DNA from: Schmidtea polychroa | Taxonomy: Eukaryota | Reading direction: 5' to 3' | Length of the DNA: 64,000 nucleotides | NCBI GenBank assembly: GCA_044892525.1 | Contig: CM097885.1 | Coordinates: forward strand, 35,404,001-35,468,000 | Shown here: in pieces, positions 29,685-56,779 of the stretch | Position numbering within the stretch: position 1 is the stretch's first letter | Layout: each line of letters starts with the position of its first letter | Notes under the pieces: generated by a model | The model's database searches: none | The model's input: only the letters and a program-made list of their open reading frames with translations | What the model was told of the DNA's origin: nothing | Position numbers and translations under genes: made by a program

Positions 29685-30469
29685 AGTAGATAGATAGGGA
29701 ACCGCTAGATCAGGACTCCGCTGGATCACATACCCCCACCCCCCCCACCTAGGGGAAATTTTTAAAATTCTTTTCAAGGTCAAATTTTTAATGTAAAGTT
29801 CATTTTTTTTTTAAATTTGAAATTCGAGAGTTCCTGACAAGAGATATTATTATTTGAAAATAAAGGTCTTTGAAACACAGGGATTATTATATATATATAG
29901 TCTGAATTTATCCGACAAGATATTCTGTCCCCTATGGGTAATGCTCACAAGGGTATGGTCACATTCAACATGTCGCAAGGGTATTATTAAACAAATCAAC
30001 ATTGTATTTTTATTATTTTATTATTATTATTATTATTATTATTATTATTATTATTATTTTTTTATTTTTTTTTTCTAATATTTTAATTTTTTTTTATTTA
30101 TTATTTATTTATATTTTTATTTTTATTATTTATTTATATTTTTATTTTTATTATTTTATTATTATTATTATTATTATTATTACTATTATTATTATTATTA
30201 TTATTATTATTATTATTATTATTATTATTATTATTATTATTATTATTATTATTATTTTCATTATTATTATTATTATTATTAAGATTTACAAAATTATTAT
30301 TAGTTTTCATAATAAATTAAGACATTAAAAGATATATTGAATCACAGATCAATTCGATAACAATACGTCATCTATATCAATATCATTGGCATCATTGGCT
30401 TCATTGTCATCATCATTGAAATCTGGACTCATTCCGCTAAAAAGTGGACGAATTTATGAAATTACTTGA

Positions 30470-53809: not shown

Positions 53810-56779
53810 ATTTAAAAAATTTAATGAAGGATATATTAAATTATCAATACATAATATTATATAAAATTATACTATATTTATTAATAAATTTAGAATACAT
53901 AAAATTATAATATTATAATATTTTATAAAGTTATACTATATAATAATGTTTAAATATGCTTAAATAACTAAAGTGTTTAAATATGTTTAAATACTAAATT
54001 TAAATTATTTAAATATAATTTTGATATAACTTTATTTCTTTCATTTTAGTATCCATAAAGTAAGTAAATAAAGAATTTACTACAATATTTTAATTATTTT
54101 ACTTAGTAATGAAGAAAATGAATTATATGATTATGAAGAAGATGAACCAGACAAAATGGTGAAACACTAAATGACTTATGTTCTGGATTTAGAAATTTCT
54201 TATTAAAACATGAATTATAGAAGAAAATGAACCAGACAAAATGGTGAAACACTAAATGACTTATGTTCTGGATTTTTTAAATGAATTAGCTGATTGTGGG
54301 TGTCCTTCAACATGAATTATCAGACTTAAATTATGTAAACTTTCAACGAATGTCAAGAAAAATGGGAAAAACCGATGTTTTATCAATTAAGTAAAGTACT
54401 CGTCATACCTGAAGAATATTATTTCGAATGTAAGATATGAATTAATTCTTTAAAATATATATATATTATATTTAGGTATCTGGGAATGGTGGGAAATGAC
54501 ATTGAAAAAGTATACCAATATTGCATAATTTATCAAGCCTGTGATGATAAAATGTTAGATGATGTAAATTAATTGCTTTTAAATCAATAGATATTTTAGC
54601 AATGAGAGTTGACGCCGCATCAGAAAATAAGAGATACGTCCAATTCGCAAGATGTATTCCATGAAATCACTATCAAATGGCCTGATGGAGAGATTAATTT
54701 TGAGATAGATTACCAACAGAAGAGCGAGAAAAATTTGTAAATTAAATATAATAGGGTTGAGTGGGTCCTCTTTATCCCTTAATTAATATATATTTACAAG
54801 CTGATCGTCGTGGTGGGCGGTTGTAATCCAACTAGTGGGAGGCCTCTGTAAATATATATTTGTGTTAGTGAAAACATTAATTAATTTGGTTATAGTGCCA
54901 ATGACGCATGTATTTTGAAATTATACGTTTCGAATGTGCTGGTAGTTGACTACCCATGCTAGGCGTAATGTTCCGTACGGAAAGCTATAATGCCCAGGTT
55001 CTTCTGACCCCACTTGGGGGAGGCACAGACGACCCTTGTGGACGCGAACAAATATCCACCGTGTCTTTCAGGCACAGATATTTGGTCACTGCTCATTAGG
55101 CCTGGCAATACTAAATGCATACACTTTGCCTTGTCCTCTCTTGTCTTGATTTTTATCGTTTAAATATTAAAGTGTGTGTGATAAGTTTTATTTACTAACC
55201 TTAATAAACCATAATATGCTTTAAAATCGAAAACCTTTGAGTGTGAGTAGTACCCTTGCTATCAATACCCATAGGGGGACAGAATATTTTGTCGGATAGA
55301 CTAGGAGTATATACACCCATGTTAAACAAGGTATGTGTATATAGAATGTGTGTGTAAAATTATCGCTCCTTATTGACAACTTCCTGTAAAGGCAAACACA
55401 GAATACTGCAAACATAATAATACTCTACCCCATAACTTAGTATGTAAAAATTATTTAAGATTTTTTCACTAATAATAATAATAATAATTATAATAATAAT
55501 AATAATAATAATAATAATAATAATAATAATAATAATAATAATAATAATAATAATAATAATAATAATAATAAAGTTTAATGGGTTGTATATGTGTGTAAAA
55601 AATATTTGAGGTTTTCAATAATAATAATAATAATAATAATAATAATAATAATAATAATAATAATAATAATAATAATAATAATAATAATACTTTGAAATTG
55701 TATTTGAAAATAATTTGCGACATGTTGATTGTGAGCAGTACCTTTGTGACCAATACCCATAGGGGGACAGAATATCTTGTCGGATAGATTATATATGATA
55801 ATAACAACATCCACGCGTGCGTTAATATTTTAAAAGAAAATATTGAAAATTAAAAAATAATAATATGTAATCAACGATTTAAACAAAATTATATTATTAC
55901 GTATTCAATAATTAAAACAAAAAATTATATAATCAATGATTTAAACAAAATTAAATTATTATGTAATCGATAATTAAAACAAAATTATTTGTTCTAAAAA
56001 TAAGAGGCATCGTTCTAAAAATATGACGTAATCATTCAAAAAATATTAGGCATCATTCTAAAAATATGACGTAATCATTCTAAAAATAAGAGGCATCGTT
56101 GGGTGAGTCATTGGGTGAGTCATTCTCTTTGTAAATATTAATGATGATGATACCTTCAATAACTCATTCGAAAGGTCTTGGACTGAGCTTTAAGATGAGG
56201 TATCGTCCAATAAATTCGGATAATGGGAACATTAAATTTTGGGATGAAAAAAAGTAGGAGCCCGCTGGATCACTTAATAATATTTTGGAAAATAATAATA
56301 ATTTAACTTTGAAAAGATGGTGGTCATCAAATGTTAATAACATTAAAACTATTAAAGATACCTATAGCACATCTTAAAGGTCTTGCAAAGGGTTTTAAGA
56401 TGAGGTATCGTCCAATAAAATCTGTTGGCTGGAACATTAATTTTTGGGATGAAAAAAAGTGTGAGCCCTCTGGACCAATTAATTAAACCAAAAAATTAAA
56501 TTAAAATTTTTTTTTCAGGGGGGGGAGGGGGGTATATGTGGTCTGGGGAGCTCATGGTCTGGGGAGCTCACATCCTACTACTTAAAGTAAATTAATCTTC
56601 AAAATTAATTGCATAATATATAAATAAATAATTTTAAAACGTAATCGTTAATTAAAAGCCTAAATGAAAATCTTACAAATGGAGGGATTTTATATGTCAA
56701 CAGAAAAAAGACAGATAATTCTTTTAGTTAAATAAATAAACAGGACTGTTTTATAACTACTTACAATGTAATTAGCAAA

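Follow-up and report, generated by a model that had tools for sequence, protein, structure and literature searches.

A 64,000-nucleotide stretch of the Schmidtea polychroa genome (assembly GCA_044892525.1, contig CM097885.1, positions 35,404,001 to 35,468,000; this whole stretch is called the window, and positions are given in its numbering) contains two large elements, here named E1 and E2, which have the ends of Maverick/Polinton elements and consist mostly of one inverted repeat each. What are these palindromes, and how did they form? The original prediction, made from the window alone, was that they are copy-back defective genomes from two independent Maverick families. The palindromes are real and recurrent, and they are more structured than first read. 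On the basis of the observations described here, we propose that E1 and E2 are half-genome inverted duplicates of Mavericks, formed in separate events and spread in trans, and we put the probability of this at about 0.62.

Two palindromes and the Maverick half that they double

E1 occupies 29685..43393 (13.7 kb) and E2 45258..56582 (11.3 kb). Neither is assigned to a strand, and both have the AGTAG...CTACT ends that had already been noted. E2 is flanked by an exact duplication, TAAAGT (45252-45257 and 56583-56588), whereas the two target-site copies of E1, ATTAAC (29679..29684, plus strand) and AATAAC (43394..43399, plus strand), match at only five of six positions; the expected 6-bp target-site duplication is therefore exact for E2 and imperfect for E1. 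E1 splits the frame of one host retroelement, whose GIY-YIG part lies to the left (29018..29684) and whose reverse-transcriptase (RT) part lies to the right (43394..44193), both on the minus strand. From the order of these parts we take the host element to be Penelope-like.

The left arm of E1 (29685..34693, plus strand) pairs with the right arm (37101..43393, minus strand) over about 5.0 kb, when a right-arm insertion is set aside in a self-comparison of the window, and the arms differ by four substitutions in 3,571 bp. The insertion (37741..39045, minus strand) is a MULE-type DNA transposon of 1.3 kb with an 8-bp duplication and a FLYWCH frame at 38005-38817, found in the right arm only. At its inner end the left arm is about 1.7 kb shorter than the right, and the corresponding inner part is present on the right side only (35444..37100, plus strand); in other E1-family copies the longer arm is present on both sides. 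E2 is made up of a left half (45258..51256, plus strand), a fold-point stretch of about 270 bp (51257..51528, no strand assigned) and a right arm (51529..56582, minus strand), which is an inverted copy of 45258-50438 and 50634-50868. The pairing is of 45270-50438 with 51764-56554 and of 50634-50868 with 51529-51765, about 5.4 kb in total, with seven substitutions and one indel in 3,671 bp.

These details make it extremely improbable that the palindromes are assembly artefacts derived from chimeric fold-back reads. Substitutions, indels and an insertion on one side only distinguish the arms, each element lies between direct duplications, E1 cleanly splits the frame of the host retroelement, and the fold junction of E1 recurs on at least three large contigs. 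The point in favour of an artefact is an inverted flank at another copy, described below, that is 100% identical over 2.3 kb.

As first noted, neither element has a recognisable integrase, capsid, ATPase or protease: no match was found by tblastn with these proteins from two Maverick families of the same genome. The description of both as poor in core genes is correct for E2, from which the protein-primed PolB (pPolB) is also absent, but not for E1, which has a 989-aa pPolB frame in each arm. E1 and E2 share with autonomous Mavericks the AG/AGT-type termini in inverted repeats and the 6-bp duplication, with the difference in exactness noted above, but they cannot be classed as autonomous. They are non-autonomous Maverick derivatives, having ends and sequence in common with complete elements, many dispersed copies and their own duplications, without an integrase.

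Complete elements are present in the genome: a sister family, here called family H, and two E2-ended elements that have both integrase and pPolB. The order in family H is end, RING, pPolB, small acidic gene, protease, major capsid, PZ-like, integrase/minor capsid, ATPase and TBP, where 'PZ-like' and 'minor capsid' are presumably the appropriate labels. The capsid was assigned from feature similarity to double jelly-roll (DJR)-like clusters, using a 94%-identical relative (0.97, with recognition below the threshold of the tool). The E1 arm is homologous to the stretch of family H that starts with pPolB and stops just short of the protease. The inner part of E1 includes most of a small acidic gene (about 36677-37171, read by eye), which is probably spliced and has its family H counterpart between pPolB and protease. 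The left half of E2 is collinear with that of capsid- and integrase-bearing, pPolB-less relatives until their protease gene; it follows one of these, L079, to 51256, where L079 enters the gene. Both palindromes are therefore cut at the same module boundary. Judged by these alignments, E1 and E2 are each shown to be a Maverick left half, doubled and inverted and cut just before the protease-capsid-integrase-ATPase block.

Any palindromic element can formally be described as terminal inverted repeats (TIRs) around a short core, and internal deletion is the usual origin of non-autonomous elements. It could thus be argued that the arms are ordinary TIRs of unusual length around a deleted core, which is what full-length relatives might have revealed. 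They reveal the opposite, and we regard this explanation as very unlikely. The inverted ends of family H are about 1 kb long (the stretch read stops before the right tip), and the arms match the unique left half of the full-length relatives. The complete and the pPolB-less relatives contain a single pPolB or a single arm, and in the four centres examined no E1-ended element combined a structural core with two pPolB genes. In vertebrate elements the TIRs measure 46-1,447 bp, according to the excerpted text of PMC8097293 (this and the other articles cited are represented here by excerpts).

In two E2-ended, non-palindromic elements, both with exact duplications, one side consists of the E2 arm and the other contains protease, capsids, integrase and TBP; the ATPase was seen in one of the two, and no pPolB was found in the stretches read, between which the gaps are each <2 kb. 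Eight further E2-ended elements were probed by two 400-bp samples each. In six, arm sequence lies on either side, oppositely oriented; the other two are the complete elements, with integrase on one side and, on the other, a pPolB 81-86% identical to that of E1. In a coordinate cross-check, E2 ends lie within 8 kb of two of the 20 listed protease hits and near one of the 50 listed family H pPolB hits. The pPolB-less class may be the parent of E2 or may be a recombinant that regained the structural block. The fold-point stretch of E2 is absent from L079, and a related stretch occurs in another copy (L014). Two genes from the right end of the structural block are present in one E2-type copy (L026:1052-2049).

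E1 and E2 were predicted to be independent. They appear to be products of separate events, but they are related: they have the same end architecture, with AGTAG in common and differing ends beyond that, they are linked by the pPolB of the complete E2-ended elements, and they share a motif of 60-100 bp. This motif occurs once per arm in E1 (29895-29989 and 43087-43183), four times per arm in E2 (for example at 48830..48925, plus strand), and once at the inner edge of the family H terminal repeat.

Some other features of these elements should be recorded. The further motif positions in E2 are 46401-46472, 46887-46962 and 50631-50695, with their mirrors; there is another at 743-838, the motif often lies beside a TAT microsatellite, and its copies bound inversions in some E2 relatives (L054, L023). 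The inner arm part of E1 contains 144-bp tandem repeats (35559-36116). E2 contains a stretch resembling signal recognition particle (SRP) RNA (47301..47399, minus strand; mirror at 54800-54898, plus strand), which scores 29.6 bits against Rfam RF00017, where the gathering score is 70, and folds no better than shuffles (z -0.52). The RING-finger gene of family H (L077:1736-2260), between end and pPolB, has no match in E1. In family H and in pPolB-less relatives a TBP-like gene is head-to-head with the ATPase (L076:8067-8528, L098, L099). A search of the genome for the Pox_A32 family was weak, giving 13 matches from the 150 of 2,606 candidates that were scored, and it missed the L076 ATPase. Elsewhere in the window there is a decayed relic resembling a Maverick end (527-1045), about 72% identical to the E1 subterminal region, and there are fragments of long terminal repeat (LTR) retroelements at 2151-4186 and 16079-16615 (protease, RT, integrase zinc finger and zinc knuckle).

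Copy families and the nested end at the centre of E1

The assembly comprises 781 Mb, mostly in four large contigs. Patterns made from the ends matched 158 times for E1 and 228 times for E2, and the reversed-pattern controls gave no match, so that chance is excluded. Among ten E1 end pairs, seven have exact 6-bp duplications, two match at five of six positions and one is exact if one end is taken three bases longer; seven of eight E2 end pairs are exact. Of twelve further copies, two have inverted flanks; the duplications of the other ten are direct, one of them containing a mismatch and two lying in TAT repeats. One-sided insertions or deletions, such as the transposon in E1, are seen in other palindromic copies too. 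Four classes of element coexist, mostly with distinct 6-bp duplications: complete elements, palindromes with pPolB only, elements without pPolB, and palindromes free of core genes. The original prediction would have been undermined by a lack of other palindromic copies with distinct duplications; there are many, and its central structural claim, that these are inverted duplications of one Maverick end that keep two ends and have integrated repeatedly without an integrase of their own, is upheld. An integrase family with 136 hits (L033) was considered as a likely helper and set aside, having no DNA in common with E1 or E2.

The loop of E1 is itself a nested mini-element (34723..35443, plus strand), consisting of a short left end and about 640 bp of the family H terminal repeat. 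It begins AGTAG and ends CTACT, matches the end of the complete family H at 85% identity, and has inverted 26-bp flanks in place of a duplication. The possibility that it is E1's own right end was rejected, since its orientation is that of a nested element. Three other E1-family centres were fetched, and they contain no integrase, capsid, protease or ATPase; the idea that the centre is the site of the structural genes was therefore also rejected. Two of the three are palindromic to within 0.4-0.7 kb and have the same junction as E1, and the third is without the inner part.

A pattern for the inner junction has 131 matches genome-wide. Among the 100 listed, 88 have arm sequence, all of which continue into the nested end, and 12 are unrelated. 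The listed matches include 21 inverted pairs: 20 have loops <2 kb, and the remaining loop, of 14.9 kb, contains an E2-type palindrome. A pattern for the empty site had one match in the genome, itself an altered nested end, and gave no empty-site parent. As far as can be judged from the alignments, E1 is shown to fold where another Maverick, inserted at a single fixed site, has its end. This points to duplication mediated by inverted repeats and not to random copy-back.

Three further arrangements were observed. At G000:C1:55498364-55513280 (L054/L055) there is a Russian-doll palindrome, in which an E1-type arm, an H-type end and an E2-type palindrome follow one another inwards, mirrored on both sides. 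An E1-type centre at G000:C2:165643723-165643794 (L065) is nearly loop-free, with a near-perfect hairpin tip. Tandem arrays of units containing the inner junction or an end are found at G000:C2:113001251-113011288 and C1:266246041-266255877, with periods of about 3.3 kb and 2.45 kb.

The polymerase of E1 and the recopying of its arms

The pPolB main frame in the left arm (30470..33439, minus strand; 989 aa) includes an endonuclease-VII-like zinc domain and is accompanied by an N-terminal piece in a different frame (33364..33987, minus strand). The right arm has a second main frame of 989 aa (39513..42482, plus strand), 99.8% identical to the first, and its own N-terminal piece (39037..39588, plus strand), so that both genes point outward from the centre of the palindrome. 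The gene is broken near both ends of the 989-aa frame, with identical breaks in both arms. Homologues of the frame carry DNA_pol_B_2 (PF03175) and Endonuclease_7, while the profile match of the window's own frame is to Endonuclease_7 only, below the cut-off. By homology the frame is a protein-primed PolB.

The family H protein is 63% identical to that of the E1 family. In a tree of the first 360 aa (36 rows, midpoint root; five of the 39 chosen proteins were dropped for short alignment), E1 groups with family H (100/100), among unnamed proteins and apart from the named animal homologues. The closest database relatives are 50-59% identical, unnamed and mostly on short contigs; over the range 40-59% (P0001-P0034) almost all are unnamed proteins, mostly on 3-17-kb assembly contigs. 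One might guess that such contigs are collapsed palindromes or small free elements. Scans of viral contigs and metagenomes for pPolB relatives gave no confirmed locus, and none of the solved structures matched by sequence.

The doubling of the gene is a property of the E1 family. Among its best 46 pPolB hits, 22 form 11 divergent inverted pairs less than 10 kb apart, and two more form one 33-kb pair. In the family H control, only two of the best 115 hits are in an inverted pair (one pair) of <10 kb; both lists hold best-scoring hits only. In five of the 11 close pairs, both arms have stop-free pPolB frames of at least 1,290 aa. A family H inverted pPolB pair at G000:C3:50921126-50927139 is a possible third, independent fold-back.

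Across pPolB, divergence is 0.2-0.7% between the two arms of a copy and 3.0-7.8% between copies. Arms that diverge by 0-0.7% in copies that are 3-8% apart imply that one arm has been recopied from the other, to judge from the alignments. As the breaks in the window's pPolB are common to both arms, and later insertions are in one arm only, the arms were equalised at or before integration.

Pairwise ratios of non-synonymous to synonymous substitution (dN/dS) for pPolB between copies are 0.04-0.22. Among seven junction-bearing copies, namely those placed by position next to the nested junction, 17 of the 21 pairs have dS >0.1, and their dN/dS is 0.12-0.18. These values suggest that pPolB has probably been under purifying selection within the palindromic lineage, which we hold with slightly less assurance than the proposal as a whole.

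An alternative is that E1-type elements are passive defective copies, in which pPolB looks conserved as a result of repeated import from unsampled complete elements, and that pPolB-less elements are recombinants that regained the structural block and not the parents of E2. The pPolB sequence is indeed a mosaic of blocks 10-14% apart, and complete E2-ended elements with a pPolB 81-86% identical exist, so that the low dN/dS may come partly from complete donors. The window's own pPolB is broken in both arms and E1 integrated nevertheless. The exact arm-to-protease junction of L079 occurs in only four of 40 scored hits, and lies at a TAT microsatellite, an easy crossover point. Set against this, the two complete copies probed share no near-identical block with any of the 11 E1-family copies compared, and are 12-17% divergent from all of them; these two are therefore not the donors, although others are possible. 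The stop-free frames in both arms of five close pairs also argue against passive copies, as does the lack of an empty-site parent. On these grounds we consider passive copies doubtful. This alternative touches only function and direction, and the anatomy described above is unaffected by it.

Origin, spread and comparison with known systems

Half-genome inverted duplication would be explained if Mavericks replicate by protein-primed strand displacement. The displaced strand would pair through its outer ends and, in the ancestor of E1, through those of the nested element as well. On one side, what lies between the outer and the inner repeat would then be overwritten, by repair or template switching, with the sequence of the opposite side, so that a second replicase half takes the place of the morphogenesis half. 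Such a molecule would have two identical origins, and could refold as a near-full-length panhandle, in which one arm serves as the template for the other. Relatives that are complete or lack pPolB would supply integrase, and capsid if it is used; E1-type elements would probably supply their own pPolB and terminal protein, and E2 would need everything in trans. Both the pairing of displaced strands and the template switch on a free replicon are inferred from analogy with adenovirus, in which non-terminal inverted repeats cause replication-induced rearrangement (PMC2518115).

The main rival to this proposal is that the palindromes arise and are homogenised in the chromosome, by template switching at host forks or by gene conversion between inverted ends, and that rare products are excised and amplified as ordinary non-autonomous elements. 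Protein-primed panhandles would then not be needed for the fold-back. Several observations favour such an origin. Two inverted-flank copies were followed outward, and in both the palindrome continues into neighbouring DNA, for 2.8 kb in one (its 2.3 kb of newly fetched sequence being 100% identical) and for 1.6 kb in the other (99.4%). Neither stops at a Maverick end or a duplication, and the suggestion that every inverted flank is part of a larger outer Maverick was abandoned for this reason. The 100%-identical flank may be an assembly error. At a third locus, host flank has been copied inverted inside the element. Template switching therefore takes place in the chromosome as well, where arms can be extended or homogenised. 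Inverted flanks occur in two of four sampled H-type end pairs, and the density of Mavericks in the genome is very high, which makes nesting common. On the other side, the ends of most copies are clean and their duplications exact, the two families share the module boundary at which they fold, and the uncopied insertion in one E1 arm, with one-sided indels elsewhere, implies that conversion after integration is not pervasive. We therefore judge a purely chromosomal origin to be improbable, more so than passive copies. The palindromes that reach neighbouring DNA without an outer end (L066/L067, L068/L069, L084-L087) enter the pPolB gene of another family, a host RT/GIY-YIG retroelement and host flank.

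Other observations also weigh against our proposal. E2 has no nested end at its centre, and E2-type copies fold at different points. The contrast between arms and copies is weak in a non-coding stretch upstream of pPolB (0-0.7% within, 0-5.4% between). The four closest pairs have dN/dS of 0.27-0.71, and the pairs are not independent. The loose form of the junction pattern had 230 control matches, 31 of the 131 matches are outside the listed set, and an E1 parent with a diverged junction would escape the pattern. Half-genome duplicates spread in trans remain our preferred interpretation.

A tentative extension is that Mavericks are splitting into separately mobile, complementary parts: a palindromic satellite with only the replicase, and a pPolB-less element with capsid and integrase. 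Classes with pPolB only and without pPolB both exist; their ends share AGTAG and architecture and differ beyond that, and complete elements exist too. It is conceivable, with similar reserve, that the satellite was born once, when a nested Maverick triggered the inverted duplication, and has been under purifying selection since. It is also possible, and no more firmly held, that the parts complement each other or exploit complete elements, the core-gene-free palindromes being pure cheaters. If this is true, the splitting marks a natural step on the way to a multipartite DNA virus, and these elements are fossils of panhandle replication in Mavericks.

The wider significance is that Maverick replication has so far been inferred from gene content. 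Mavericks are 'thought to' replicate by protein priming (PMC4405056), and their virions have not been observed, as stated in the excerpt of PMC8097293. Adenovirus-like strand displacement via a panhandle predicts both mutually recopied arms and half-genome duplicates with their fold at a nested end, so that the replication model would be testable from genomes alone. Divergence between arms provides a clock for each insertion, like that of LTRs. Giant palindromes apparently also prompt the inverted duplication of adjacent DNA, and Mavericks may be a source of such duplications in chromosomes. Screens that require integrase and pPolB together (PMC8097293, PMC10748475, in the parts available) would miss all three derived classes.

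E1 and E2 resemble Mavericks/Polintons in their AGT-type ends and 6-bp duplications and, for E1, in a pPolB that is broken in this copy (features as given in the excerpts of PMC8097293 and PMC4405056), and in having relatives in the genome with integrase, ATPase, protease and jelly-roll capsid in two modules. They differ in that their inverted repeats are 5-7 kb, far beyond the vertebrate range quoted above, pPolB is duplicated inside the repeats, and integrase and morphogenesis genes are missing. The nuclease insert in the E1 pPolB recalls, by description, the HNH domain of pPolB2, and exchange of pPolB between Polintons is reported in nematodes (both PMC10748475, in excerpt).

Copy-back, or snap-back, defective viral genomes have one end duplicated in inverted form and two origins, and depend on a helper. 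Both E1 and E2 have one genome end twice in inverted form and have lost the genes of the other end, and to this extent the predicted copy-back origin stands. It needs amendment in view of the retention of pPolB in E1, the fold at a nested end, and the inverted duplications that run into chromosomal DNA. In contrast to copy-back genomes, the elements described here are DNA, with multiple integrated copies and target duplications; in E1 the fold point is fixed at the nested end, and the replicase is retained under apparent purifying selection. E1 may therefore be a replicase satellite more than a plain defective genome.

Adenovirus genomes with internal inverted repeats, studied by Steinwaerder, Carlson and Lieber in 1999, reportedly yield a product in which an insert is flanked by two copies of one end. 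Those genomes are engineered, gene-less and not integrated, whereas E1 is natural and chromosomally inherited, its inner repeat is a nested Maverick, and the polymerase is kept twice. Gene-less non-autonomous Polintons, with Polinton ends and mobilised in trans, are said to have been described by Kapitonov and Jurka in 2006 and in Repbase, some reputedly with very long TIRs. E2 resembles these, and if such long TIRs do occur among them its shape has a precedent. Even then, within the literature searched, there would be no description of a pPolB in both arms or of a fold at a nested end. That search, of full-text literature, gave no title or opening of an abstract on palindromic or double-pPolB Mavericks; Repbase and supplements lay outside it, and a prior description is possible. 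The available passages of PMC6431247, PMC4405056 and two nematode preprints contain no such palindromes.

Finally, E1 is similar to transpovirons and to the replication modules proposed for Polisuviricotina (bioRxiv 10.64898/2026.10.13.758929, in excerpt), in which a replicase module moves without a morphogenic module. Transpovirons have a replicase and a DDE integrase and no morphogenic module (same excerpt), whereas E1 is without an integrase. Self-moving replication modules are put forward there as speculative, and the pPolB examples given come with integrases. An integrase-free, polymerase-only family spread across chromosomes provides a concrete case for them.

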